Part shown: positions 3,998 to 18,357 of the stretch, one piece after another | Numbering within the stretch: the first letter of the stretch is position 1 | Layout: each line of letters starts with the position of its first letter | Origin: Candidatus Calditenuaceae archaeon HR02 | GTDB lineage: Archaea; Thermoproteota; Nitrososphaeria_A; Caldarchaeales; Calditenuaceae | Assembly: GCA_002898395.1 (NCBI GenBank) | Contig: BEHE01000025.1 | Span: 1 to 18,885, forward strand | DNA: 18,885 bases | Direction: 5' to 3' | The notes under the pieces: generated by a model | The model's input: only the letters and a program-made list of their open reading frames with translations | Database searches by the model: none | Told to the model about the DNA's origin: nothing | Made by a program: the position numbers and the translations under genes

Positions 3998-4069
3998 GGA
4001 GCTATCAATGCTAAAACTAATTATTAATTATCTTTATCGAGATACCTGCCTGCTATTAAGCTGAGATGA

Positions 4070-4745
4070 GTGGTGCTTGCAGCTGCTGCGGGTTTTTGTC
4101 GGCTATCGCTATTGGATTGCCAGTATAATAGCCCTAATATTCCAGACCTCTGGTGCGCGGAGCATGGTGGTAGGTCGTCTATAAGGTTTTGGCCCAACTG
4201 CAATTGTTATAATGCTTTTCAGTGGGAGTCCGCTGACGGATTCAGATATAGCGTTAGTCTCGTCTCTCCCACATGTTGGGTCTGTTATCCCTATGGTATC
4301 CACCTCTGTGTACACCAGCAGGTCAGGGCATGATGTTGAAATAACACTCATCGGCGTGGAGGCTTCGCTTTTACCTAAGCTGCTCGGCGAGCTTAAAATG
4401 ATAGACGGCCAGTTATACCCAGACATTCTGTCTCCTGTTGGTTAAGCTGGATACTAGATAGCCTCTAGTTGTGGAGTAGAGATTCCAATAATTCTCCCGT
4501 AGAATCCAGCTAGTCATTAGTGGCGTGCTTGATAGGTGTGGGACATCGACGTTCATCTAAATCGACAACGTCGTCTTCATACCTATAGATGCTTTAAAAG
4601 CATTAACGAATATGAGAAACTATAATCTAATACTGGCGAGGGCCGACAGCATAGAGAAGGTTCAGAGTATCGTTGATCAGTTAACTACAATACACGGTGA
4701 AAGAACCAGAGTGATAGCTTTGCAGAGCCTCACCAAAGCTATTTA
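4070..4745 (+). pseudogene. Decayed MacB/FtsX-type ABC permease (N-terminal TM and periplasmic-domain remnants, C-terminal FtsX domain missing)
   Basis: One frame reads ...IASIIALIFQTSGARSMVVGRL*GFGPTAIVIMLFSGSPLTDSDIALVSSLPHVGSVIPMVSTSV...VEITLIGVEAS..., with an in-frame TAA at 4182-4184. Later fragments (ISGVLDRCGTSTFI, IDNVVFIPIDALKALTNMRNYNLILARADSIEKVQSIVDQL) lie in other frames. The pattern matches the MacB periplasmic core domain. Confidence 0.55.
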
Positions 4746-5779: not shown

Positions 5780-5853
5780 ATACTAGTGATTATTTGATTA
5801 TTCTAGCTATATTCAGCGGGTAAAATTTCGTCTCCACAAAAGCACCAGCCAGC

Positions 5854-6009
5854 ATGCAAGTTTTCATGGGATTTACATTCCTAGCCGTCAGCCATCTCTT
5901 CTTCCTTACCACTATCATAGATTCGGTAAACTATCTACTCGGGCATGTCTTCCAACTCACGGCTCTTACCATGCTGTTATCAGCCACTATAACCGCTGGG
6001 GGGAAATGA
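5854..6009 (+). CDS. Small hydrophobic ORF coupled to the downstream winged-helix gene
   Basis: Hand-translated as MQVFMGFTFLAVSHLFFLTTIIDSVNYLLGHVFQLTALTMLLSATITAGGK. Its TGA overlaps the next ATG (ATGA at 6006-6009). An in-frame TAA at 5821-5823 separates it from further upstream hydrophobic coding sequence. Confidence 0.3.
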   Translation: MQVFMGFTFLAVSHLFFLTTIIDSVNYLLGHVFQLTALTMLLSATITAGGK

Positions 6010-6276
6010 AGCGGCGTGAATACCGTTCGAGAATACTGATAATACGGGATATCCTTAACTCTATATCCACCAATAGCCCAGCTAGAATATCAACCATAGT
6101 CCGGGACGCTAATATCCCCTATGATAGACTAGTTAAGATTCTCGAGTCCATGAAGCAGAACAGCCTTGGTTGACACGGTTGAAGATGCTTATGTATTAAC
6201 AGAGCGGGGAGAGCATCTGCTTGAGGAGATAAACTATATAGAGAAACTAGCGAAGGCATTCGGAATAAGAATATAG
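6006..6276 (+). pseudogene. Small winged-helix transcriptional regulator (archaeal COG3432-like), single +1 frameshift
   Basis: Hand translation gives MKRREYRSRILIIRDILNSISTNSPARISTIVRDANIPYDRLVKILESMKQNSLG*. From 6169 in the next frame it continues VDTVEDAYVLTERGEHLLEEINYIEKLAKAFGIRI*. An extra G around 6168-6169 breaks an otherwise typical wHTH. Confidence 0.5.
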
Positions 6277-6389
6277 CACGTTATTCAGAAAGCCTCTAAG
6301 ACTGTTCATAGACCGCGTCTATTGCTGGCCTGCGCTTCACAATTTGTGCATAATATTTAATTACTTCAGTTTTTCGATTTTAACGCTAG

Positions 6390-6890
6390 GTGGGCTATGC
6401 TATGCGAATTATGTGGCCAGTAATAGGTGTTATAATCGCGGCTGTTATAGCATCAGCTGCGTTCTTCATAGGTATTCAACAGACAGGGCCGCCTGCGTCT
6501 CAGGGAACAACTGCCACTGCTGAGACGCGAACAACAGCGCCCCCTACCAGCCGCGGTGTGGTATCGCTAACGTTATATCTTAACGACTATGGCTATAACG
6601 CATCTAAGGGGGGCCCGACGATAACAGCTTACGTCGGTGATTTAATTAGGATAAGATTGGTTGGCAACGGCTCTGGGCCTATAAGGCATGATTTCACGCT
6701 TGATAGGGAGAGTCCCTCACCCTATGATATCCAGTCGGATAGGCTGCGTAACGGGGAGGAGCAGGTTATAGAGTTCGTAGCCAACCATGAGGGCGAGTAT
6801 AAGTATTACTGTAGCGTCAAACCACCCTTCGGACAGAGCCATAGAGAACGGGGGCAAGAAGGAACAATAATCATTCTTCCAAGGAGCTGA
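6390..6890 (+). CDS. Membrane-anchored type-1 copper (cupredoxin) protein
   Basis: It has an N-terminal TM helix, a Thr/Pro-rich linker, and a cupredoxin ligand pattern: H100 (RHDF), C141 (YKYYC), H151, then GQEGTIIIL where plastocyanin-type proteins have GMxG. Confidence 0.7.
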   Translation: MGYAMRIMWPVIGVIIAAVIASAAFFIGIQQTGPPASQGTTATAETRTTAPPTSRGVVSLTLYLNDYGYNASKGGPTITAYVGDLIRIRLVGNGSGPIRHDFTLDRESPSPYDIQSDRLRNGEEQVIEFVANHEGEYKYYCSVKPPFGQSHRERGQEGTIIILPRS

Positions 6891-6893
6891 GCC

Positions 6894-7265
6894 TTGAGGC
6901 ATATATTATTAGTAGTCTCTCTTCTCGCATCGATTCTTTTCGGAATAGTGCTGTTAACTACTGATGCTGAGCTATGGGATAACGCGCCGTCGCATGCCTA
7001 TGGGTTAATAGGCTTGGTGCTGGTGGATGTCGTCCTTATCATCATATCCCAAAGGAGTAAAAATGGCTTCTTGAAACATGTTAGATATATAGGAGTTGTT
7101 AAGTTTCTCATCATTCTGGGGGACATACTGACGGCCCCTGAGTTTGGAATAACCTACTTAGAGTTCGCGGAGTATCTGCTGAGCCTCTGGGCATATGATG
7201 GGCTTCTCGGAAGCCAGCTGGCTATAGCATTGTCCTCGCATTACCATCTGAGAAGACTATCATGA
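6894..7265 (+). CDS. Hypothetical membrane protein, coupled to the cupredoxin gene
   Basis: A 123-aa ORF with 3-4 hydrophobic helices. Its TTG start lies 4 nt after the cupredoxin stop. Confidence 0.5.
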   Translation: MRHILLVVSLLASILFGIVLLTTDAELWDNAPSHAYGLIGLVLVDVVLIIISQRSKNGFLKHVRYIGVVKFLIILGDILTAPEFGITYLEFAEYLLSLWAYDGLLGSQLAIALSSHYHLRRLS

Positions 7266-7329
7266 TCCTCACTAAGCTATATGAATAATCTTACCACGTA
7301 GAAGTGTGTGTAGCTTAATCTTGGAATGG

Positions 7330-7710
7330 CTATTTATTTGATTTATCTATTATTTGCTGCCTTGGCGTTATCCATTTGCTGCCCCATTTTCTGAGAGCCG
7401 TTAGCATTGGTTTAAGCTCCCTACCTTTCTGCGTCAGCTCATACTTGACTAGGAACGGGTTTGTGCTCACTATCTTCCTATCCACCACCCCCTCCTCTTG
7501 CAATGACTTTAACGCTCTGGATAAGGTCTTCGCATTCATCTGGGGGAAGGATCTAAGAAGCTCGTTAAAGCCTTTAGGCCCATCAAGTAGAAATCGTATA
7601 ACAACAAGCTTCCATATCGATCTAATCCTCATCAATGCCTCAACTATCGGACATACTTCACCTACTTGACATGACTCGCTGTTTTCTCTTACCTTTCGCT
7701 CCGATCCCAT
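7330..7710 (-). CDS. HxlR-family (MarR/DUF24-type) winged-helix transcriptional regulator
   Basis: The motif is CPIVEALMRIRSIWKLVVIRFLLDGPKGFNELLRS....NAKTLSRALKSLQEEGVVDRK......VKYELTQKGRELKPMLTALRKWG, which is the HxlR signature. Two N-terminal Cys residues are present (SCQVGEVCP). Confidence 0.85.
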   Translation of the reverse strand: MGSERKVRENSESCQVGEVCPIVEALMRIRSIWKLVVIRFLLDGPKGFNELLRSFPQMNAKTLSRALKSLQEEGVVDRKIVSTNPFLVKYELTQKGRELKPMLTALRKWGSKWITPRQQIIDKSNK

Positions 7711-7722
7711 GGCTAACTGACA

Positions 7723-7735
7723 TAAGTGCCACTTA
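7723..7735. promoter_or_regulatory. Perfect 6-1-6 palindrome TAAGTG-C-CACTTA, candidate operator
   Basis: Read directly from the sequence. It lies between the hxlR-type start (7710) and the shared AT-rich box. Confidence 0.35.
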
Positions 7736-7737
7736 CT

Positions 7738-7747
7738 AATTTATATA
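7738..7747. promoter_or_regulatory. AT-rich TATA-like box (AATTTATATA), possibly shared by the divergent promoters
   Basis: It is about 30 nt from the minus-strand ATG (7710) and about 29 nt from the plus-strand GTG (7776). This spacing fits archaeal leaderless or short-leader promoters. Confidence 0.35.
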
Positions 7748-7775
7748 GTTGCATTTGTATAGCAGATAGCAAAAG

Positions 7776-8261
7776 GTGAGCGACATGGCGTTCTTAGATT
7801 TCCTAACCCAGTACACGGATGTCGCAACATTAGCCCTACGGATAGCAGTCGGGGCTCTGATGATAATCCACGGCATGCCAAAGCTAGCAGGCCCAGCGAG
7901 GCCACAGATGCGCGAAGGGATGAAGCAACTCGGTATACCTGGGGGTTTATTCGACCTGGTTGCGATACTGGAGTTCTTCGGGGGGCTATTTCTCTTACTG
8001 GGTTTCTTAACTAGAATAGCCTCTATACTCTTCATCCTAGAGATGGTCGGCACAATACTCCTATACCTAACCAAGATAGGCAAGATGGTCCCGCCTCCGG
8101 AGATGCTGACCCAGATGGTTCAGGCATCTAGAAGCTTCATGCGGGGCTACATGGCAGGTGTAGGTGGATGGGAACTTGACAAATTGATACTAGCAGCCGC
8201 GATAGTGATCCTAATTCTAGGAGGGGGAGCATTCTCCATAGACGCCCTCATAGGACTATAA
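7776..8261 (+). CDS. DoxX-family membrane protein
   Basis: The motif is LALRIAVGALMIIHGMPKL.....GIPGGLFDLVAILEFFGGLFLLLGFLTRIASILFILEMV....GGWELDKLILAAAIVILILGGGAFSIDALIG, the DoxX pattern. The start may instead be ATG 7785, which is preceded by aaaGGTGAg. Confidence 0.85.
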   Translation: MSDMAFLDFLTQYTDVATLALRIAVGALMIIHGMPKLAGPARPQMREGMKQLGIPGGLFDLVAILEFFGGLFLLLGFLTRIASILFILEMVGTILLYLTKIGKMVPPPEMLTQMVQASRSFMRGYMAGVGGWELDKLILAAAIVILILGGGAFSIDALIGL

Positions 8262-8269
8262 GGAGGTGA
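8262..8269 (+). promoter_or_regulatory. Shine-Dalgarno-like GGAGGTGA
   Basis: It lies 7 nt upstream of ATG 8277, immediately after the DoxX stop, which indicates translational coupling within an operon. Confidence 0.5.
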
Positions 8270-8276
8270 TTATTCA

Positions 8277-9176
8277 ATGGCTCCAGTAATAGAGATAATA
8301 GAATACACAGACCCTTACTGCACGTGGTGCTGGGGAAGTGAGCCGATTTTGAGGAAGATTAAGGAGGTTTATGGTGAGCAGGTGGAGATATCTTATAAGA
8401 TGGGTGGGTTGGTCGGGGATATCCGTGATTTCTATGATCCGGTTAACGAGATTGGCGGTGAGCGTTGGTATGAGCAGGTTGCAGCCCACTGGGAGGATGC
8501 TTCACGTAAGCATGGCATGCCCGTGGATAGTAGTGTCTTCTACGAGATAAAGGACAGCTTCACATCAACCTATCCAGCAAACATAGCTGTTAAGGCAGCT
8601 GAGTTTCAGGACAGAGAACTGGCTAAACGTTATCTTCGGAGGCTTAGGGAGGGAGCAGCCGCTGAGAGGAAGCATATACACAGGCTGGAAGTGCAGGCAG
8701 AGCTTGCCAAAGAGGTTGGATTGGATGCCAACCAGCTGGTAGAGGATATACGAGGTGGAAGGGCTGAGGAGGCCTTCCTCAAAGACCTAACCGACTGCAG
8801 GTCCATGGAGATAACGGGCTTCCCAACATTCCTTGTAAAGAACCTAGAAACCGGCAGATCGCATCTGGTCTATGGGTATAGGCGGTACGCTTACTTCGAG
8901 GGGCTGCTGGACGAAATCTCAGGGGATTCGCTGGTGAAGAGGAGGATAGAGAGGAACGAGGATGAGGTATTGAGCTTCATAAGCCGATGGGGAAAGGTGG
9001 CCACGCAGGAGGTAGCGACCCTACTTGACATCCCAAAATATCAAGCACTCGAGATGCTAAAGTCCATCAGCGATAAAGGCCTAATCTACGGTAGGAAAGC
9101 TGGGAACGACTATTTCTGGAGTGTGAAGACAGTAATAACCTGCGATAACGAGATGGGGATATGCAGAGCGATTTAA
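8277..9176 (+). CDS. Cytoplasmic DsbA-family thioredoxin-fold protein with a C-terminal winged-helix-like domain (SpxH/YjbH-like architecture)
   Basis: There is a CTWC active-site motif at residues 15-18 with no signal peptide or TM helix. The DsbA/FrnE-like core includes PANIAVKAAEFQ and ITGFPTFLV. A C-terminal region of about 70 aa (VLSFISRWGKVATQEVATLLDIPKYQALEMLKSISDKGLIYGRKAGNDYFWS) looks like a wHTH. Confidence 0.8.
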   Translation: MAPVIEIIEYTDPYCTWCWGSEPILRKIKEVYGEQVEISYKMGGLVGDIRDFYDPVNEIGGERWYEQVAAHWEDASRKHGMPVDSSVFYEIKDSFTSTYPANIAVKAAEFQDRELAKRYLRRLREGAAAERKHIHRLEVQAELAKEVGLDANQLVEDIRGGRAEEAFLKDLTDCRSMEITGFPTFLVKNLETGRSHLVYGYRRYAYFEGLLDEISGDSLVKRRIERNEDEVLSFISRWGKVATQEVATLLDIPKYQALEMLKSISDKGLIYGRKAGNDYFWSVKTVITCDNEMGICRAI

Positions 9177-9568
9177 AAAAAGGATTACCCAACATAAAAA
9201 TAGAGATGTTAGCCATGCAAGGCTCCTGGCCTCCAGACTACACGAAAGAAAGAACAATAAAGATAACTACCAGAGGTAGGAAGACAGGCAGGCCCCACAC
9301 CGTTACTATATGGTTTGGAGTTGATGAGAATGGTAGGATGTTCGTATCGTCTCTAAGGAATAGAGACTGGGTGAAGAATATACTCGCTAACCCCGAGGTT
9401 GAGGTTACGATAAAAGGTGTAACCCGTAAAATGAGGGCTGTGAAAGTTGAATCAAAGGAGGATAAGCAGCTCATACGCAGTATATGGAGAAAGAAATACG
9501 GATTAATGGCTAGGATAATGAGGCTTCCGAGAGAGGATGGAATAAGCTTCGAGCTGAGGGATGTTTAG
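9161..9568 (+). CDS. Split beta-barrel, Ddn-like (deazaflavin-dependent nitroreductase/quinone reductase family) protein
   Basis: The motif TTRGRKTGRPHTVTIWF....GRMFVSSLRNRDWVKNILANPEVEVTIKG resembles the PF04075-type signature (TtGRkSG.pr...l....vv.S.....p.W..Nl.anP.V.v). The real start is probably ATG 9206 or 9215. Confidence 0.7.
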   Translation: MQSDLKKGLPNIKIEMLAMQGSWPPDYTKERTIKITTRGRKTGRPHTVTIWFGVDENGRMFVSSLRNRDWVKNILANPEVEVTIKGVTRKMRAVKVESKEDKQLIRSIWRKKYGLMARIMRLPREDGISFELRDV

Positions 9569-10154
9569 AAGGATGTCGGCCTTCTGGGACCTAGCCTACT
9601 TGACCGGCTCTACTCCATGGGACAGCGATGAGCCGTCTAAGGAACTAGTCGAACTGATTGAAAGCGGCGTCATAAAACCCTGTCGTGCACTGGATATAGG
9701 GTGCGGAACCGGGTCTAACGTCATTTTCCTAGCCACGAAAGGATTCGAGGCCCATGGCCTAGATATATCCAAGGTAGCTCTGCTGAAGGCTATGAGGAGG
9801 GCGGAGGCAAGAGGCGCGAAATGCTACTTCCACAATCTAGACTTCAGGGATGTGAAAAAGGTAAGTAGATTAGGAATTTTCGACCTGGCTATCGACGTAG
9901 GCTGCTACCACAGTCTACCCCATGGGGGCGATAGAATAAGTTACCTCGACTCCCTTAACGAGGTGCTTAGGAGGGGAGGGGATTATCTTATATGGTGCTT
10001 CGTGAGAGGGGCGGGCTTTAGCTGGGGGCCGCCGGGGGTTGAGGAGTATGAGGTGGAGCGGAACTTCGGGAGCAGATATGCTCTAATCGAGAAACGTAAA
10101 ATTAGGACACCTTTCAGGGACCTTCTGTTCTATCACATGCAGAGAGTGGGCTGA
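9561..10154 (+). CDS. Class I SAM-dependent methyltransferase (TPMT/TehB-like)
   Basis: It has an N-terminal W...Y....PWD motif and SAM motif I (RALDIGCGTGSNVIFLATKGFEAHGLDIS). Its start overlaps the preceding stop by 8 nt. Confidence 0.8.
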   Translation: MFRRMSAFWDLAYLTGSTPWDSDEPSKELVELIESGVIKPCRALDIGCGTGSNVIFLATKGFEAHGLDISKVALLKAMRRAEARGAKCYFHNLDFRDVKKVSRLGIFDLAIDVGCYHSLPHGGDRISYLDSLNEVLRRGGDYLIWCFVRGAGFSWGPPGVEEYEVERNFGSRYALIEKRKIRTPFRDLLFYHMQRVG

Positions 10155-10159
10155 GGCAT

Positions 10160-10831
10160 ATGCGTATATTGGTGGAGTTCTTTCACGATGTGTTATGCGC
10201 GTGGTGCTACTGCCTATCCCCACGCGTGAGAAAGTTAGCTACGAGCTTCCCAGAGGTTGAGGTGGTTCATAGGTGCTTCGCGTTAGCCCCAGAGCCAGAC
10301 AGCATATCAAGGATATTCGGAAGCAAGGAGAGGGGGAAGGCTGAGATAATGCGGCACTGGAGAGCGGCTAACCTGAATGACGACGAGCATAGGATAAACG
10401 CGGACCTGATGGAGAAGAGGGAGTTTGACTACCCATACTCCATGCCTGGGCTTAGGGCATGTAAGGCGGCGGAGTTGCAAAGAGGCCAGCTTGGGCACTG
10501 GGATATGTTCGACAGGATACAGAGGGCACATCTAACCGAGTGTAGGAACATAGCTGATACCAACGTACTTACAGAGTGCGCCCGCGATATTGGGCTGGAC
10601 GTTAACAAGTTCCTCATCGATTTTAACAGTAGGAGGGTAGAGGATATGATTAGGGGGGACCTTAGAGAGGCCGAGAAGCTGGGTATACACGCTGTACCAA
10701 CACTAGTCATAAACAGAAAATACATCGTACAAGGTGCAATCCATATGAGTGAGCTAGAGCTTTTGTTTGAGCAGTTGGTTGAAACTGGTGAGGTACTCAC
10801 CTTGATCCCGGGATTAGTATATGCTCTTTGA
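10160..10831 (+). CDS. DsbA-family (FrnE-like) thiol-disulfide oxidoreductase/isomerase, cytoplasmic
   Basis: It has a CAWC motif at residues 13-16, no signal peptide, and a conserved cis-Pro region (GIHAVPTLVIN). Confidence 0.8.
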   Translation: MRILVEFFHDVLCAWCYCLSPRVRKLATSFPEVEVVHRCFALAPEPDSISRIFGSKERGKAEIMRHWRAANLNDDEHRINADLMEKREFDYPYSMPGLRACKAAELQRGQLGHWDMFDRIQRAHLTECRNIADTNVLTECARDIGLDVNKFLIDFNSRRVEDMIRGDLREAEKLGIHAVPTLVINRKYIVQGAIHMSELELLFEQLVETGEVLTLIPGLVYAL

Positions 10832-10842
10832 GGTGATGCAAG

Positions 10843-11634
10843 GTGGCGCACTATCTGGTTAAAGCCAAAATGGTTGGTGGTAAGATAAATGAACTGCGTA
10901 AGAAGATCAGTAGTGGGTATATATCTTCGTTAAAGCCCTTCGGAAGAGCTTTAGAGTACAGCCTAGTTAACGCTGGGTATTCGTTTGACGGTTATGTTAT
11001 GTGGGAGGAGGAAGACTACTGCTCCCCGCCCCTTGCCACGGAACGCCAAGCCGTATTGGACCATTATTTCATAGATTTATCAGCTGAGAGGGTTAGGGAA
11101 GGTATGGGCTGGAGGATGATAATGCATTACCCAAACTTCTGGCTCTTGTATGAGGGGCTGCCGAGAAGGGAGGGTGAGAGGCCCCTGACTAGGAGGGAGA
11201 TGCCCCATCAGCAGATAAGCCAGAACCCATCAGCGGAGGTGTATAACAAGCTGGCCGATCTGCTCTTCAGCATACCCGAAGTCCAGGAGGAGGCTAGCCT
11301 TATCTCCGTTCCAGGCGCTAGGGCTTTGTGGCTATCATCTGAGAAGGTTAATCCCTCGCCTGACTCGTTTATGGTTGAGAGGGAGTTTGCCCACCTCCAC
11401 CCGCCGTATGATGGTAGCATGCATCTAATGGCTCCTCCCAACTGGGTGGACGAGATACTTGGGAAGGGATGGGGAGAAAGGCACCCGCTAGCAGGCCATG
11501 CAATCCCCCGCAACGCAGTAATGGTATATGCTCCGCGCAACGAGCATGAGGTGAAAATAGTCCATAACATTGTTCTCTTATCGTATTGGAGGGCTAAGGG
11601 CGAGCGAATACCAAGCCCTAGGAGTATAGGGTGA
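10843..11634 (+). CDS. Two-domain hypothetical protein; the C-terminal domain resembles the small EF.H.HP..DGS.H family (annotated luciferase-domain/DUF5519 as far as I recall)
   Basis: The GTG start is preceded by GAGGTGA. The C-terminal motif is REFAHLHPPYDGSMHLMAPPNWVDEILGKGWGERHPLAG....AVMVYAPRNEHEV. No family was recognised for the N-terminal ~110 aa. Confidence 0.55.
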   Translation: MAHYLVKAKMVGGKINELRKKISSGYISSLKPFGRALEYSLVNAGYSFDGYVMWEEEDYCSPPLATERQAVLDHYFIDLSAERVREGMGWRMIMHYPNFWLLYEGLPRREGERPLTRREMPHQQISQNPSAEVYNKLADLLFSIPEVQEEASLISVPGARALWLSSEKVNPSPDSFMVEREFAHLHPPYDGSMHLMAPPNWVDEILGKGWGERHPLAGHAIPRNAVMVYAPRNEHEVKIVHNIVLLSYWRAKGERIPSPRSIG

Positions 11635-11640
11635 TCCGGG

Positions 11641-12540
11641 ATGTATAGGATTGATTCTCTTGCCTGCATCGGCTGGGTTAGCCTAACTGTCTCTGATTTG
11701 GAGAGGTCTCTGGATTTCTATACAAAGTTGCTGGGCATGAGAAGGGTATGCGAAGTAAGCGATGGTGGAGTAGGACTTGGTGTTGAGGACGATGACCCAT
11801 TAGTCATTTTATATGAGCAGAGAGGGGCAAGGCCTAAGCCTCCAAACACTAGGGGTTTGTATCACTACGCCATTCTACTCCCAAGCCGCAGGGATTTAGC
11901 CAGAGTTTTCATAAGGCTGACACATAACTGGGACTTCGAGGGGTTTGCAGACCATATAGTAAGCGAGGCCCTCTATCTGAAAGATCCAGATGGGCATGGA
12001 ATTGAGCTATATGCTGATAAACCAGCTGAGAAATGGAGGTATAACAAGCTTAATGAGATAGAAATGGCAACACTGCCATTAGACATAGATGACCTACTAA
12101 AAGAGGCCCGGGGAGAAGTCAGGGATATACTAAGTAAAGACTGGGAGATGCCTAGGGGGACAAAGATAGGACACATACACCTACAAGTATCATCCCTAAA
12201 AAAGGCAGAACAGTTCTACCATATCATCTTGGGATTTGACATAACTATGAGAAGATACCCTGGTGCATTATTCATGTCCGCGGGCGGGTATCATCACCAC
12301 ATAGGCGCCAACATATGGGCCGGAGTAAACGCTCCTCCCCCACCTAGCGGGTGCGTGCAGCTTAAAAGCTTCTCTATTAAACTTAGCTCAACTGAACAGT
12401 TAAATCTTGTATCAGGCCGGTTGAGGACTCATGATTACGAGTTTAAAGACTATCCTATACACAGGATAAACAATTACGTTGGAATAGCGACGAGAGACCT
12501 AGACGGAAATGCGGTGGAGATAGTCGCAAGGACCGTTTAA
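11641..12540 (+). CDS. Two-domain VOC-superfamily extradiol ring-cleavage dioxygenase (CatE/MhqO-like, COG2514-type)
   Basis: It has duplicated glyoxalase/VOC modules (IGWVSLTVSDLERSLDFYTKLLGM and IGHIHLQVSSLKKAEQFYHIILGF) and the characteristic GGYHHHIGANIW segment. Confidence 0.8.
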   Translation: MYRIDSLACIGWVSLTVSDLERSLDFYTKLLGMRRVCEVSDGGVGLGVEDDDPLVILYEQRGARPKPPNTRGLYHYAILLPSRRDLARVFIRLTHNWDFEGFADHIVSEALYLKDPDGHGIELYADKPAEKWRYNKLNEIEMATLPLDIDDLLKEARGEVRDILSKDWEMPRGTKIGHIHLQVSSLKKAEQFYHIILGFDITMRRYPGALFMSAGGYHHHIGANIWAGVNAPPPPSGCVQLKSFSIKLSSTEQLNLVSGRLRTHDYEFKDYPIHRINNYVGIATRDLDGNAVEIVARTV

Positions 12541-12809
12541 AAGATATACTTCTACCCTCACACAGAAGCAGGTAAGACGGCTGCAATGGCAACATAAGCT
12601 AGGGCTGGAAAGTGTAAATCAATAGATGGTGTGGGGTTGCATGTTGATAAGATAGCCGCGGTCCATGCGTAGCATCTCCCCTTGTCATAGACTCTGGAAA
12701 GCTACAGGCTCTAGAGGGCTAGTAGTGAGCCTGGCTTATTATCGAGGTGGTTAAAGTGCTTAGTGATAGGGCTAGTGATAGTTGTTCCTATCCTCGTCGA
12801 AGGGTCGGG

Positions 12810-14054
12810 CTAGAAGTCTCGCCACTTGGTTGCGTGGGTTGCGAGGGCTACACCTACCATGGCCACCAATCCTACGATTGCCGCGGATACTAGCGCCTCG
12901 GATACTGAACCCATTATAAGCGTCACCCTCAGGGCCACGTGGAAGTAGTAGAGGGGTGTGAAGCGCGCTATCTGCTGCATGAAGTCGGGCATAATCTCGA
13001 GGGGCCAGAAAGCGCCTGAGAGAAACATCATGGGGTATGAGACCGTGTTTCCTAGGGCAGTCACAGCGTCGGGCGTCTTCAGAACCCCGCCGATGAAGGC
13101 TCCTAGGCCTGTGAAAGCAAGCGTGCCGAGTATGATGATTAAGACGCTGAATACGTTGGGTGTGATGGTTATGTGGAAGACCAGCCAGCCTACAGTTATC
13201 ATCGTGGCTGTCAGGATTAGGGAGACAATGGCTTGCATTATAATGAGCGAAACCATCCATAAAGATCGTGAGAGAGGGGTGGTTGAAAGCAGTTTCATCA
13301 CACCGTTTCGCCTCAGCTCAGAGGTGAAGGAAGAGACGCCGAGTAAACCGTTGGTCATTACGAATGCCGCCACAATGCCTGGCAGATAGTAGTCAACTGG
13401 GCGGAATTGCCTGGCGCCGCTGTAGACGATATTTATCTCTATGGCTGAGGATGCGTTGAGGAGCGCCAGCTCGAACCTGTCAGCAATGGTGTTGATTATG
13501 CCCTCAACCGATTGGAGTATCCTGTCGTCGGGGCTTCCTTCGAGAATGAGGGGTTTTTTCTCTGTTTCGAAGAATCGTTTAGACGCCTTCAACATGTTGA
13601 GACCTTGGCTTACGTTCGCTCTCCCCTCCGCGGATAAGTTCTCTCCCGCCAGTTCTAAGAGCTTTTCTATAGTGTCGGCTGTAATATCTATTCGAGTTGC
13701 TATGGTGTTGTTTAGTAGCGATGCGGTGAATCCTTGGGGGATCGTGAGTATCCGGATGGCGGCGAATCCCGTGGATTTCGGAGCTGGCGCTTCCGGCGTG
13801 AGTAGCTTGATGTCGAAGACTCTGCTGTTGTTGAGGGCCTGGATGAATGCTGCAGCGAGAGGGGCTGGATTGCCTTGTGGGTCAAGGTCAAGGTTCCGTA
13901 TGTAAAGGCTGTAGTTGGGCGGTGAAGGCCCTCCGAAAATAGTGCCAAAGAGAAGCAGAAACATGATGGGTAGAGCGAATCCGAAGAAGAGGCTAGATTT
14001 ATCTCTCATCCAAGCTTTGAACAACAGGAAAACGATCCTAGAAATCGTGGTCAA
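12810..14054 (-). CDS. ABC-2-type transporter permease with a large extracytoplasmic loop
   Basis: A 414-aa protein with one N-terminal TM helix, a soluble loop of about 190 aa, and then 5 TM helices. Its start overlaps the ATPase stop by 4 nt. Confidence 0.8.
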   Translation of the reverse strand: MTTISRIVFLLFKAWMRDKSSLFFGFALPIMFLLLFGTIFGGPSPPNYSLYIRNLDLDPQGNPAPLAAAFIQALNNSRVFDIKLLTPEAPAPKSTGFAAIRILTIPQGFTASLLNNTIATRIDITADTIEKLLELAGENLSAEGRANVSQGLNMLKASKRFFETEKKPLILEGSPDDRILQSVEGIINTIADRFELALLNASSAIEINIVYSGARQFRPVDYYLPGIVAAFVMTNGLLGVSSFTSELRRNGVMKLLSTTPLSRSLWMVSLIIMQAIVSLILTATMITVGWLVFHITITPNVFSVLIIILGTLAFTGLGAFIGGVLKTPDAVTALGNTVSYPMMFLSGAFWPLEIMPDFMQQIARFTPLYYFHVALRVTLIMGSVSEALVSAAIVGLVAMVGVALATHATKWRDF

Positions 14055-14980
14055 ATCAGCTCACCTGTCTCGGAGAGCCTCGATCCGATAACCGATAGAA
14101 AAACATCCTCAAGCCCGGGTTGCCTAACCTGCGGATAAGCCATGAAACCGCCGCTCCTCAGCAGAGCAACGACATCAAACACTTCTGATTCTTTCTCAAC
14201 TTTGATCACTACGAGCCCTTCCTCCGTCTGCTCCACCAAGTATCCGCCCTCGCGTAGAAGTTGGGCAGCTTCCGGCTCTAGGAAATCGAAGACGAGACGT
14301 GTTCTTCCCCCGTACTTAGCAACCAGCTCCCGCACTCTTCCCTCAACAGCTATCCTTCCTCTGACCATCACCGCTACACGGTCGCTAAGCCTCTCAGCCT
14401 CCTCCATGTAATGCGTCGTCAGAATTACGGTAGCTCCAGATTTTTGGATATTTTTGATGTAGAGCCATGTTTCACGTCTTGCTTCGGGGTCAAAACCCGT
14501 GGTGGGCTCGTCGAGGAAAACTATCTCGGGGTTTCCGACAAGGGCCATGGCTATACCGACCCTCCTCTTCAGCCCACCTGATAGTTTTGAGAACATTTGT
14601 TTCCTAATTTCCCACAGACCCAGCGAGTCGAGAACCTCCTGTATGTTATCGGCTTTCTTAGCCACCGCTGCCAGCTGTACGTTTTCGAATACGGTTAGGT
14701 TGTCTATGGCTTTAAAGTCCTGCGGCAGGACACCTATAATCTGCTTTATTTTCATGCTATCGCCGGGGTTTTTCACGCTGAGACCCTTGACGAATGCGTC
14801 GCCGGAGGTCGGAGTCCTGAGACACTCGAGAATCTCGACAGTCGTCGTTTTTCCCGCACCGTTGGGGCCCAGCAGCGAGAATACCTCACCTCGGTAAACC
14901 CTGAAAGAAACATTATCAACAGCCACGACACCGCCGTATTTCTTTACAATGCCTTCGACGACAACCACTTCGGAAACCAT
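14051..14980 (-). CDS. ABC transporter ATP-binding protein (ABC-2/DrrA-like)
   Basis: Motifs present are Walker A (GPNGAGKTT), Q-loop (VLPQ), signature (LSGGLKRR), Walker B (VFLDEPTTGFD), and H-loop (LTTHYMEE). Confidence 0.9.
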   Translation of the reverse strand: MVSEVVVVEGIVKKYGGVVAVDNVSFRVYRGEVFSLLGPNGAGKTTTVEILECLRTPTSGDAFVKGLSVKNPGDSMKIKQIIGVLPQDFKAIDNLTVFENVQLAAVAKKADNIQEVLDSLGLWEIRKQMFSKLSGGLKRRVGIAMALVGNPEIVFLDEPTTGFDPEARRETWLYIKNIQKSGATVILTTHYMEEAERLSDRVAVMVRGRIAVEGRVRELVAKYGGRTRLVFDFLEPEAAQLLREGGYLVEQTEEGLVVIKVEKESEVFDVVALLRSGGFMAYPQVRQPGLEDVFLSVIGSRLSETGELI

Positions 14981-15356
14981 AAACCCTCTCTCCTCGAACC
15001 ATTCTAAAAATCTTTACGGGGCCGGCCACTCCGCCCAGAAACTGAAGAGGTGTTTCGGGTATTAACGTTTCCAGCCGATCTAAATACGAGACCCCCACGC
15101 GACTGCAATTATCATTGAATGTATTACCCAGGCGGGATCCATACACGTTTCCGATAGCTAGACGTAGTGGTATCTAATTACCTGAATAACACACTCTAAA
15201 CTTTCCTCGTGGAAAATAGTAACATAAAACCCCCTGTAATACGCAAAATGTAATAAAAAGAATTTAGGTTTGTGGTATTGATCACCTGCTACTCTCGGTC
15301 ATCTTCATCATTGGTATACATTAAGAAGAATATAAAACTCGGAAATAAATAATCAT

Positions 15357-16926: not shown

Positions 16927-17379
16927 GTAGGTGGAGGTGGTCAAGTATTTAGTGGCGATAGGCGAAGCGAGCAGGGACGACCTTAGGATAAAGATCGGCT
17001 GCTAAGTTTCTCTTCGTGGCCTTCTCCAGGCTGTATGATATTTTGCAATAGAGTGTTTCGACAACAGCTAGGCCGCCCAAACAAATCGAGAAAAGCCCTC
17101 CGCCGCATGAAAATATGGACGGATAGCCATGGGTGAGAGCACCTCACCCCTCAAACGTTTAATAGAATCAATAACATGCTTCTCGCCCCAGAGGCCGCAT
17201 CCCCTAACCCCTAAAACCCACACACCGACACAAAACACCCAACACACCCAAGCAACCCTAGACAGTGGAAATAGACTCCACACCCAGAAACCCCCCACAA
17301 ACCATAACACCTATATTCTCAGACACACCATCTCCCCACCGAAGAGCCAACCCAGCACCAAACCAGGAAAACCCCAAAT

Positions 17380-17466
17380 GCGGCGGTGCCCTAGCCCGGT
17401 AGGGGGGTGGCCTGCTAAGCCACTGGGCCGATAAAGCCCGCGAGGGTTCAAATCCCTCCCGCCGCG
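17380..17466 (+). tRNA. tRNA-Ser (anticodon GCU), class II, no intron
   Basis: Hand-folded. The acceptor stem is GCGGCGG/CCGCCGC, with discriminator G. The D stem is CCCT/GGGG. The anticodon stem is GTGGC/GCCAC with loop CTGCTAA. The long variable arm is GGGC-CGATAAA-GCCC. The T arm is GAGGG-TTCAAAT-CCCTC. No CCA is encoded. Confidence 0.9.
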
Positions 17467-17471
17467 GGGTA

Positions 17472-17590
17472 GTTAAATTATTATAATAAGCAGGGGGAAT
17501 AAGGGGGGAGGGGCGGGTGTTCGTCTGCACTTCATCATATTCCTGCCGATACTTTTCTTCAAAATCTCACAAATCTTCCACCACTCCTTC
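17472..17590. repeat. Left arm of a 119-bp perfect inverted repeat
   Basis: Base-by-base comparison shows 17472-17590 equals the reverse complement of 18663-18781 with no mismatch. Imperfect similarity (many mismatches) continues inward to about 17675 on the left and about 18578 on the right. Confidence 0.9.
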
Positions 17591-18357
17591 CTTTCCCCTA
17601 TCTTGTCCATATAACGCCGTGTCCTCTTTATGGAGAAATCGATGAGGTATCTCCTCCTAGGTATCGATGTTCCGACCTTCTCCAAGAACCTTTGATGGTC
17701 CTCAGGATAGATATACGTCACATATACGTCATTCTTCCTCTCTATCCACATTCGCCTCTTGGGATGCCATGCTTTGCTACCCTTCTTAATCGCTAGTATC
17801 AATGGACTTGTCCTTATATCCAGCTCGGCAAGTAGCTGTCTGATATATTCGAGTAATTGGACATCGGTGTTCGCGTAGGCTGGCATCAATCCTGCGCCAT
17901 CACCGTCGAAGAAGCCTCTTAGGAATCCTAGTCTCGCCTCGGGGTCGGAGTCCATGTATTTCCGCCACTCGCCACTATCTAGCAGATAGTATGGCTCGGT
18001 TGATGTGGCGTACACTCTGTAACCACCGTCCCTGAATATTATCGACGGTCATAACCCTATCCTCCTTAGAGCCTCAGCAAATGCCTCCACAAACTCTCGA
18101 TCCCTGACACGCAACATAAGGTCTGAATTGCCCGCATGTCTTTTTCTGTTGCCATCCGATAAAACACTCCCGACAACATACCTAAACCAATAACCCTCCC
18201 TCACAACAACACTGACCCTACCTTCAGGCCTATGAGTTCCTCTACACCAGTAGCTGATTTGGCTTTTACTTAACCACACCCCGAATAATTCATAAATCCT
18301 CTCCTGAATCTTCCTATAGCTCATATCTTCCCCCTGAGCTCCAGCACCCTTTGACAC
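17473..18357 (-). pseudogene. Double-motif LAGLIDADG endonuclease-like protein with N-terminal HTH, interrupted by a single in-frame TGA
   Basis: ORF 18049-18357 holds the HTH (MSYRKIQERIYELFGVWLSKSQISYW) and LAGLIDADG motif 1 (FRYVVGSVLSDGN). ORF 17473-18015 holds motif 2 (LGFLRGFFDGDGA). The two ORFs share one frame (885 nt, 295 codons) and are separated only by TGA at 18049-18051. The likely start is ATG 18324. Confidence 0.75.

Follow-up and report, generated by a model that had tools for sequence, protein, structure and literature searches.

We analysed an 18,885-bp contig of Candidatus Calditenuaceae archaeon HR02, called the window below, and studied positions 7330–12540, where a gene for an HxlR-type regulator stands divergent from seven co-directional genes for DoxX, DsbA-fold, reductase, methyltransferase, luciferase-domain and dioxygenase-like proteins. 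The first-pass annotation had described these seven tightly packed genes and the divergent HxlR gene, and direct reading of the DNA reproduced their coordinates, gaps, overlap and 65-bp spacer. Profile searches with Pfam and NCBIfam placed all the protein families named there above the curated cut-offs. In the following, gene 3 is the YjbH-like DsbA (299 amino acids, aa), gene 6 the FrnE-like DsbA (223 aa), gene 7 the fusion protein (263 aa) and gene 8 the two-domain VOC protein (299 aa). The features, with gene limits taken from the list of open reading frames (ORFs), are as follows.

7330–7710, minus strand: hxlR, HxlR/DUF24 winged-helix regulator of 126 aa (Pfam PF01638, 86.9 bits).
7714–7735: candidate operator, a 22-bp imperfect inverted repeat TAACTGACA-N4-TGCCACTTA flanked by the hxlR start codon on one side and the shared TATA element on the other.
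7740–7747: palindromic TATA-like element TTTATATA, candidate for both divergent promoters.
7776–8261, plus strand (likely start ATG 7785): DoxX-family integral membrane protein (Pfam DoxX, 57.1 bits).
8277–9176, plus strand: gene 3, YjbH/SpxH-like DsbA, the anchor gene, with a Thioredoxin_5 domain (120.7 bits) and a C-terminal winged-helix part.
9161–9568, plus strand (likely start 9206): split-β-barrel deazaflavin/flavin-dependent reductase of Ddn/FDOR-A type (PF04075, TIGR00026).
9172–9179, plus strand: second TATA-like element, TTTAAAAA, at the boundary between core and inserted block, ~27 nt before ATG 9206.
9561–10154, plus strand: class I S-adenosylmethionine (SAM) methyltransferase, TPMT/TehB-like (PF05724, 47.5 bits, cut-off 26).
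10160–10831, plus strand: gene 6, second cytoplasmic DsbA-fold protein, FrnE/YjbH-like, with CAWC (DSBA, 75.7 bits).
10843–11634, plus strand: gene 7, whose two parts are given in the next two lines.
10843–11157, plus strand: N-domain of the fusion protein, an unnamed family of ~100 aa with the motif W-x-E-x-D-Y-C-x-P-P-L and a predicted ferredoxin-like α+β barrel.
11152–11634, plus strand: DUF5519/PF17648 'Luciferase' domain of the fusion protein (PF17648, 72.3 bits).
11641–12540, plus strand: gene 8, two-domain VOC of the CatE-like family, a candidate extradiol ring-cleaving dioxygenase (Glyoxalase, 86.6 bits over two domains).

Comparison loci, numbered with an L, were fetched with the fusion protein, the YjbH-like DsbA (80 metagenomic loci), the VOC and a short bacterial DUF5519 protein, and the cluster proteins were mapped on them by tblastn. 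L003 is HR01, L107 is Ca. Pelearchaeum and L114 is Thermoflexus sp. CP076326.1.

Junctions within the operon are short. Fifteen nucleotides, which include GGAGGTGA, separate the doxX stop codon from the next ATG, and the reductase and methyltransferase frames overlap by 8 nt (9568/9561); both junctions were read directly. The following gaps measure 5 nt (10154/10160), 11 nt (10831/10843) and 6 nt (11634/11641), and a GGTGA/GAGG-type motif lies 5–9 nt 5′ of the start of each internal gene. For doxX, ATG 7785 is a likelier start than GTG 7776, because it has a GGTGA 5 nt upstream and is conserved in HR01 and L107; the divergent spacer is 74 bp to the former and 65 bp to the latter. The reductase probably starts at ATG 9206 and not at 9161, since this agrees with the N-termini of its homologues. 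With this start, the gap between gene 3 and the reductase is 29 nt long and A-rich, and it holds the TATA-like TTTAAAAA at 9172, which we regard, speculatively, as a possible internal promoter. A scan for sigma-70 promoters and terminators was set aside as uninformative for an archaeon.

The regulator lies far above the PF01638 cut-off of 20.8 bits. Its Cys20, in the stretch VCPIVEAL, aligns with a cysteine in all 14 regulators linked to the gene 3 family. An N-terminal cysteine (Cys11 in HxlR, and its equivalents) is the electrophile or oxidant sensor of this family, and in Bacillus HxlR a Cys-x-Lys pair on helix α1 forms a methylene bridge needed for formaldehyde sensing (PMC7835342). Formaldehyde sensing, as in HxlR sensu stricto, was rejected here because this pair is absent from all 14 linked regulators; HR02 has C20-P-I, and position +2 is occupied by I, M, V or A. 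The regulator gene is divergent wherever it is linked, and no other gene adjoins the YjbH-like DsbA as often; it occurs at 11 of the 55 metagenomic loci with enough upstream sequence, in addition to L107 and the HR02 window.

The inverted repeat TAACTGACA-N4-TGCCACTTA is unique in the window, where 0.05 matches would be expected by chance. L107 has it as a perfect 9-4-9 repeat, L027 conserves it, and L037 and HR01 retain it in part. A small palindrome, TAAGTGcCACTTA (7723–7735), had been considered as the operator and was dropped, since the alignment of L107 and L027 shows the conserved larger repeat TAACTGACA-N4-TGyCAsTTA. Only two TATA-like elements of this kind occur in 7200–12900; one of them is TTTATATA, which is conserved in HR01 together with 20 of the 21 bases downstream. 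This element could drive both directions; with transcription starts placed at the usual archaeal promoter spacing, hxlR would have almost no leader and doxX one of ~15 nt containing GGTGA. In L095 (571–874) and L101 (5003–5227), the spacer between hxlR and the DsbA gene holds four to five tandem direct repeats of ~22 bp (CTACAGATACTTTCTTACTATC), possibly a series of operators used in that lineage. In L100 (9226–9918), hxlR and the DsbA homologue, which are divergent, have a metallo-β-lactamase-fold gene (motif THAEVDH) between them.

HR02 DoxX contains no cysteine and is 84% identical to its L107 counterpart. It also matches DoxD weakly, as well as HvfX (28 bits for a cut-off of 80). In L027 (9768–10000), an internal deletion has left ~60 codons of doxX between hxlR and the DsbA gene, with the promoter and the inverted repeat retained. 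M. tuberculosis DoxX is reported to form a thiol-oxidoreductase complex with SseA and SodA (cited in PMC7907618).

Gene 3 matches DSBA with 53.6 bits in addition to Thioredoxin_5, and its best PDB match is Geobacillus YjbH/SpxH (6GHB, chain 6GHB_B; E = 2.2e-23), which covers both parts of the protein (aa 5–265). No signal peptide is present, and CTWC sits at residues 15–18, so that the protein is cytoplasmic. CTWC is kept in 83 of 85 homologues. Nearly all homologues with at least 58% identity also have a C-terminal cysteine pair, typically C-x6-C (CDPETGxC; CDNEMGIC in HR02) and C-x4-C in the L043/L044/L046 clade. Gene 3 matched no NCBIfam model, SpxH included, and no Spx/ArsC-like ORF was found in the window. 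These archaea are not known to possess ClpXP or Spx. A role as proteolysis adaptor was judged unlikely on the first two counts; these, the lack of ClpXP and Spx in such archaea and the extra C-terminal cysteine pair make a thiol-disulfide oxidoreductase the more likely function.

The gene orders of archaeal relatives allow the core of the operon to be told from its additions.

L107 (Ca. Pelearchaeum): divergent HxlR, then DoxX, DsbA, VOC; proteins 74–84% identical to HR02.
L043 and L044: divergent HxlR, then DoxX, DsbA, VOC.
L046: DoxX, DsbA, VOC, with DoxX at the contig start and the HxlR position outside the contig.
L037: divergent HxlR, then DoxX, DsbA, reductase, methyltransferase, DsbA.
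L027: the order of L037, with the internally deleted DoxX and an extra Cys-rich gene of 183 aa.
HR01: DoxX, DsbA, 180-aa gene, reductase, methyltransferase, DsbA, fusion protein; HxlR and VOC are absent at the locus.
L110: DsbA, 185-aa gene, reductase, methyltransferase, DsbA, frame-shifted fusion gene, VOC.
L036: DsbA, fusion protein, VOC, aldehyde dehydrogenase.
C. subterraneum: DsbA, DsbA, fusion protein.
L028–L035: DsbA, reductase (and methyltransferase).

The comparison shows an ancestral core made of DoxX, the YjbH-like DsbA (CTWC and C-terminal cysteine pair) and the CatE-like VOC, with HxlR divergent. The YjbH-like DsbA is taken as the anchor of this module because it is present across the gene orders compared. 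Hence, the HR02 operon is best described as an L107-type core with four genes, for the reductase, the methyltransferase, the FrnE-like DsbA and the fusion protein, between the anchor and the VOC; relatives hold differing subsets of the four. This bears on several earlier claims. That regulator, DoxX and dioxygenase-like protein form one unit was borne out by the compact loci L107, L043 and L044 and by the trio of L046, and the hxlR-doxX...catE-like synteny proposed for checking does recur among archaeal loci. The set of seven genes is not constant: HR01 lacks HxlR and VOC, C. subterraneum has DsbA-DsbA-fusion only, and many other subsets exist. Nor is the SpxH-like DsbA an insert; it is the module anchor and the gene most often paired with HxlR. 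HR01, which has neither HxlR nor VOC at the locus, further shows that the inserted genes can function when these two are not beside them.

Two small genes accompany some of these loci. In HR01 (4024–4281), an 85-aa PqqD-like gene occupies the place of hxlR directly 5′ of doxX, with more small ORFs further upstream. A Cys-rich gene of 180–185 aa (CxxC...CxxC, zinc-ribbon-like) lies between the anchor DsbA and the reductase in HR01 (5813–6355), L027 (10885–11436) and L110 (3545–4102); it is absent from HR02 and L037 and has no Pfam family.

The cluster had been described as archaeal, but it is not confined to Archaea. Thermoflexus sp. CP076326 (Chloroflexota) has, in one direction, VOC314, DUF5519, VOC296, DsbA, a 109-aa gene, two DoxX, a methyltransferase and DsbA298. 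Homologues of six of the seven operon proteins are thus present; the FDOR-type reductase is absent. Identities to HR02 are 48% for DUF5519 (with the C-terminal part of the fusion protein), 53% for the 109-aa protein (12090–12419; with the fusion N-domain), 49% for VOC296 (with VOC299), 55% for DsbA200 (with DsbA223), 39% for DsbA298 (with DsbA299) and 33% for DoxXb. The halves of gene 7 are therefore encoded close together by two genes in Thermoflexus but by a single gene in archaea, a fission/fusion relationship which suggests that they work together. The block of DoxX, methyltransferase and DsbA298 (13275–15193) is cleanly missing from a second Thermoflexus strain (L115), so that the bacterial system is modular as well. 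In the Thermoflexus homologue of gene 6 (11415–12065), and likewise in L115, an in-frame TGA (11448–11450) stands at the first cysteine of CxxC: MVRVTFYHDVL-TGA-VWCF corresponds to FFHDVLCAWCY in HR02, and a good Shine–Dalgarno sequence precedes the ATG. This protein is a candidate selenocysteine (UxxC) DsbA. A search for a selenocysteine insertion sequence (SECIS) found a hairpin 17–31 nt after the TGA, which is the right distance, but its stability does not exceed that of shuffled sequence (z = 0.15). Thermoflexus has cultivated members, and the system may thus be open to experiment.

The arrangement is more than chance, because its order or subsets recur in HR01, L027, L037, L107, L110, L036, L043, L044, L046 and a bacterium. 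That unrelated redox genes merely adjoin in HR02, without forming a functional unit, is accordingly a highly improbable account. The differing composition of HR02 and HR01, and the many DsbA-anchor loci without any other cluster gene, would fit it. Against these stand the tiny gaps and overlaps with a Shine–Dalgarno-like motif before each internal gene, the same order in L110 and subsets in at least ten loci, the clustering of six of seven homologues across domains in Thermoflexus, and the fission or fusion of the gene 7 halves inside these very clusters.

Among the inserted genes, the reductase scores 53.1 bits against F420H2_quin_red PF04075 (cut-off 22) and 58.1 bits against TIGR00026 (cut-off 46.35), and its gene directly follows the anchor in eight of the ten informative closest-tier loci. 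FDOR-A enzymes reduce quinones, and FDORs are listed mainly for Actinobacteria and Chloroflexi (PMC8498797). The methyltransferase, which comes after the reductase in HR01, L027, L037, L110, L032 and L035, stays far under the equivalog cut-offs (TIGR03840, 18 versus 223 bits; TehB models, ~35 versus more than 200). Gene 6 has CAWC at aa 13–16 and no signal peptide, and matches both FrnE (5CNW, 1.9e-12) and YjbH (1.5e-12) in the PDB. Its C-terminus, ending in GEVLTLIPGLVYAL, is Cys-free, and the FrnE-type CxxxxC is not present. Both DsbA proteins (genes 3 and 6) match DsbM.

The 'unknown protein' of the first-pass annotation, gene 7, could be typed as a PF17648 domain joined to a new N-domain. 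The PF17648 match (cut-off 23.7 bits) covers aa 180–246, and the DUF5519 domain residues ~104–263. Eight residues, H122, E181, H184, H186, D190, H194, E212 and H214, are invariant and common to 46 short bacterial members; this His/Glu/Asp set is a candidate metal site. AlphaFold models of gene 7 are confident: the complete protein has a predicted local distance difference test (pLDDT) score of 92.5, and the DUF5519 domain modelled by itself reaches 94.8. No PDB sequence matched gene 7, and Foldseek against the PDB returned nothing significant for it, the best E-value for the DUF5519 domain alone being 0.07. A literature search for DUF5519 gave no result. Residues 1–100 match no Pfam family. 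Among 1.84 billion proteins, the N-domain family accounts for 240 representative clusters; most of its proteins stand alone and are 100–130 aa long, and the motif cysteine is kept in 106 of 117 members; weak Foldseek matches point to ABM, NIPSNAP and polyketide-cyclase folds, which are α+β barrels.

Two Caldarchaeales lineages place the fusion gene in another setting, where it is followed by a Rdx/SelW-like CxxC protein and RpiB, with no DsbA genes preceding (L004 8001–9576, the fusion and Rdx genes overlapping by 4 bp; L010 36–1525). The fusion protein is thus found beside thioredoxin-fold partners in two independent arrangements, with DsbA in some loci and with Rdx in L004 and L010. It was rejected as the module anchor, since its gene has no cluster partner in L008 and L009, and DsbA is missing from L004 and L005. 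In L110 (5753–6435), the fusion gene consists of three frame-shifted pieces with 38–55% identity while the rest of the cluster is intact; either the gene is a pseudogene or the assembly is at fault. Stand-alone N-domain genes occur at 16 bacterial loci (L011–L026; Gemmatimonadales, Nitratireductor, Fraserbacteria and others) linked to no cluster family, and an aldo-keto reductase gene adjoins them in L011 and L012. Two bacterial loci with short DUF5519 genes and no cluster (L112 5442–6275, L113 1453–2421) both have a Pirin gene within 1–2.5 kb.

The ABM-like fold is also found among polyketide tailoring enzymes, which leads to an alternative in which the operon makes or tailors a small quinone, aromatic or peptide natural product. 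In line with this, the cluster includes a methyltransferase, FrnE takes its name from the frenolicin cluster (PMC8945050), DoxX has the weak match to HvfX, a protein of ribosomally synthesized and post-translationally modified peptide (RiPP) maturation, and HR01 has the PqqD-like gene and the small ORFs upstream. The PqqD-like gene, however, is not in HR02, and the window contains no polyketide synthase, non-ribosomal peptide synthetase, radical SAM enzyme, cyclodehydratase or precursor peptide, none of which is conserved across the loci. Since the regulator type and the homology to catDE favour detoxification, we hold a biosynthetic role to be quite improbable.

Gene 8 belongs to a very large VOC family, with more than 7,000 matches, for which catechol 2,3-dioxygenase is a widespread source label; no close solved relative was found. 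Profile matches to HPCD and C23O are weak (1e-8 to 1e-6), and the NCBIfam matches include the thiol transferases FosA and FosB. The protein is 80% identical to the L107 VOC, which directly follows DoxX-DsbA. H178/H180 and H218–220 are invariant, as are H75, H105, E109 and E122; the Glu of GNAVEIV lies outside the invariant columns of 30 diverse members, and the family may use metal ligands other than the canonical 2-His-1-carboxylate triad of type I extradiol dioxygenases. In L036 the VOC gene is followed by an aldehyde dehydrogenase gene, and so is HR01's 55%-identical VOC paralogue (L108), an arrangement that would be expected downstream of meta-cleavage.

These pairs, together with the common catechol 2,3-dioxygenase label and the ABM-like and oxygenase-associated domains of the fusion protein, could also be read as signs of growth-supporting aromatic catabolism through a meta-cleavage pathway, and not of a stress response. 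We find this improbable. The HR02 cluster has no genes for a hydrolase, hydratase, aldolase or initial ring-hydroxylating oxygenase, half of its genes encode thiol-redox proteins, its regulator is of the thiol-sensing DUF24 type, and its composition differs among close relatives.

Overall, we favour, with confidence a little better than even, the reading of the locus as a thiol-sensed defence operon against electrophiles (quinone, catechol or disulfide stress), built of a conserved core and exchangeable accessory genes. The HR02 operon would best be explained, by analogy, as a counterpart of CatR/YodB-catDE and Mhq of Bacillus in which cytoplasmic DsbA-fold thiol proteins have become the centre. 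In such a scheme, an HxlR dimer on the 22-bp repeat 7714–7735, abutting the shared TATA box, would shut off both hxlR and the operon, because it would cover the hxlR transcription start and the transcription factor B recognition element (BRE) side of the doxX promoter. Alkylation or oxidation of Cys20 would release the repressor. The reductase would then convert quinones to hydroquinones by two-electron reduction, the fusion protein would oxygenate or otherwise transform an aromatic intermediate, the VOC would open the aromatic ring and the methyltransferase would cap a reactive thiol or hydroxyl. The two DsbAs, with DoxX as membrane partner, would reduce or resolve quinone-thiol adducts and disulfides, including those of the fusion protein's conserved cysteine. 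The catechol/hydroquinone substrate class is an inference, and the earlier interpretation as a whole is partly supported.

Several observations weigh against electrophile defence. The regulator adjoins the anchor at only the 11 of 55 informative loci, and the HR01 cluster does without both an adjacent HxlR and a VOC. The C-terminal Glu of GNAVEIV, canonically the third metal ligand of the VOC, is replaced by Ile in L044 and L046, and Trp occupies the first metal-ligand position of the N-terminal domain. For TACK archaea, the evidence of F420 synthesis is purely genomic (PMC8498797). DoxX has kinship to thiosulfate:quinone oxidoreductase subunits, and this kinship, the TPMT/TehB-like methyltransferase, the Rdx partner and the possible selenocysteine DsbA suit sulfur/selenium or general disulfide-stress chemistry about equally well.

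The main rival is a system for thiol/disulfide or reactive sulfur-selenium (or metalloid) homeostasis in place of aromatic detoxification. Here, a thiol oxidoreductase linked to membrane quinone would consist of DoxX and the YjbH-like DsbA. Disulfides or persulfides would be passed on by the second DsbA and the N-domain cysteine, sulfide, selenide or tellurite-derived species would be substrates for methylation by the TPMT/TehB-like enzyme, and the VOC would be metallothiol-transferase-like or another non-dioxygenase. Much in the cluster agrees with this: the two CxxC DsbAs, of which the anchor has its extra C-terminal pair, the N-domain cysteine with its conservation in 106 of 117 members, the pairing with a Rdx/SelW-like CxxC protein in L004 and L010, the in-frame TGA at the CxxC of the Thermoflexus DsbA, the TPMT and TehB matches, FosA and FosB among the NCBIfam matches of the VOC, and the weak DoxD match of DoxX along with the M. 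tuberculosis complex. Mutants in frnE are, moreover, sensitive to diamide and cadmium (PMC8945050). On the other hand, the VOC is 44% identical to a Bacillus catE-type protein that is paired with DoxX as in catDE, an aldehyde dehydrogenase follows the VOC in L036 and HR01's paralogue in L108, and the reductase belongs to a quinone-reducing family. DoxX itself is Cys-free, and sulfurtransferase, rhodanese and persulfide dioxygenase are all absent from the cluster. We regard the sulfur-selenium account as unlikely, while taking it as a serious competitor.

A further reading, which concerns thermophilic archaea and Chloroflexota, goes beyond electrophile defence of a known kind. DoxX, the YjbH-like DsbA, the FrnE-like DsbA (possibly a selenoprotein in Thermoflexus), the ABM-like Cys domain, DUF5519 and the CatE-like VOC might together form an undescribed thiol-dependent system for processing quinones or aromatics. 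DUF5519 would then be a new metal-dependent oxygenase fold, ancestral to fungal luciferase, the cysteine of its partner domain would be recycled by DsbA or Rdx, and DoxX would link this relay to the membrane quinone pool. We put this forward tentatively, as a possibility for which we would claim rather little confidence. The first-pass annotation knew of no account of the combination in Archaea, and our literature searches, HxlR+DoxX+DsbA and DoxX+MhqR among them, likewise gave no description.

The surroundings of the operon vary. At 6390–7265 of the window, 5′ of hxlR, lie two small genes, one for a 166-aa protein with a weak cupredoxin-like match (E = 0.034) and one for a 123-aa membrane protein, which also adjoins hxlR in L027 (9121–9320; 61–76% identity). 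In L107, a PEBP gene replaces the small membrane-protein gene beside hxlR, and a CopD fragment follows the VOC. An ABC-2 exporter pair (permease and ATPase; 12810–14980, minus strand) is convergent to the 3′ end of the operon; in HR01 (12354–14022) an ABC-2 pair lies ~3.5 kb downstream of the cluster, with an ATPase 33% identical to that of HR02. A link between the exporter pair and the operon is possible. Further away, a tRNA-Ser(GCT) gene (17379–17467, plus strand) lies 5 nt from the end of an opposite-strand ORF of 180 aa (17473–18015, minus strand), which carries a LAGLIDADG_3 domain.

DoxX, cytoplasmic DsbA-fold proteins and DUF5519 are widespread and poorly understood, and the locus unites them with a family that has a characterised member, CatE. 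Each of these families thereby gains a biochemical context and a short list of testable substrates. The 'SpxH-like' architecture exists in archaea, where it would have no place as a ClpXP adaptor, and a small Pfam-less Cys domain family emerges as a dedicated partner of DUF5519, fused to it in archaea and split from it in Thermoflexus. The presence of fungal-luciferase-domain relatives in clusters of catechol/quinone type is a lead on the origin of the luciferase.

Known systems resemble the operon in parts. PF17648 was presumably built around the fungal luciferase nnLuz. Unlike nnLuz, the prokaryotic DUF5519 proteins are soluble, ~155 aa long or fused to the N-domain, and have the invariant His/Glu/Asp set. 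The fungal enzyme oxidises 3-hydroxyhispidin, a catechol-bearing pyrone, with O2 (PMC6294908). Compared with the Ddn/FDOR-A enzymes of Actinobacteria, the HR02 reductase is of the same family by Pfam and TIGR00026, but it is archaeal and F420 is its putative cofactor. Gene 3 shares with YjbH/SpxH, the ClpXP adaptor for Spx in Firmicutes, the two-part architecture and the CxxC in the DsbA-like domain, whereas its archaeal clade has the extra conserved C-terminal Cys pair. With FrnE and DsbM, the common traits are the cytoplasmic DsbA fold with CxxC of gene 6 and the C-terminal Cys pair of gene 3. FrnE-type DsbAs act as reductases in the cytoplasm and are required to tolerate diamide, and in Deinococcus FrnE the C-terminal CxxxxC regenerates the active site (PMC8945050). 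In HR02, by contrast, the tail is a C-x6-C on the YjbH-like gene 3 and not a CxxxxC on the FrnE-like gene 6, and the active sites are CTWC and CAWC instead of CP(W/F)C.

Two further bacterial systems combine DoxX with a VOC dioxygenase. A Deinococcus plasmid is annotated with MarR, DoxX, 'NADPH-dependent F420 reductase', VOC and α/β hydrolase genes in this order, with a quinone oxidoreductase nearby. The MhqR regulon consists of mhqNOP, mhqED and azoR2. Like these, the HR02 operon combines DoxX, a quinone/nitro-type reductase and a VOC dioxygenase-like protein under a repressor of the MarR superfamily. It differs from Mhq in that its reductase is a split-β-barrel FDOR-A rather than a nitroreductase or azoreductase and in that it lacks a carboxylesterase; Mhq, in turn, has no equivalent of the two DsbA proteins or of the DUF5519 fusion.

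The closest likeness is to catDE, and here the analogy with CatR and CatDE drawn at the outset is sound for the regulator, DoxX and VOC, given the homology to a Bacillus DoxX+VOC bicistron, the Deinococcus MarR-DoxX-reductase-VOC locus, the VOC-aldehyde dehydrogenase pairs and the retained sensing cysteine. CatD is a DoxX protein. A Bacillus sp. chromosome served as stand-in for B. subtilis 168 CatE; its bicistron, called catDE-type from its arrangement, encodes a 134-aa DoxX and, 21 nt later, a 285-aa VOC, to which the HR02 proteins are 35% (DoxX, over an 81-aa core) and 44% (VOC, E = 2e-65) identical. In B. subtilis, catDE encodes a catechol 2,3-dioxygenase and is repressed by the DUF24 regulators CatR and YodB, repression being relieved by catechol or quinone stress (PMC6212828). 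HR02 likewise has DoxX, a two-domain VOC of the same family and a regulator of the same Pfam family with a conserved N-terminal cysteine. Unlike in catDE, however, the HR02 regulator gene is divergent beside the operon, the promoter is of archaeal TATA type, every archaeal core has the YjbH-like DsbA between DoxX and VOC, and HR02 has four further genes. What is new with respect to catDE is the obligatory YjbH-like DsbA of the core, the second DsbA, the DUF5519 fusion, the archaeal FDOR-type reductase and the fact that Bacteria as well as Archaea have the set.

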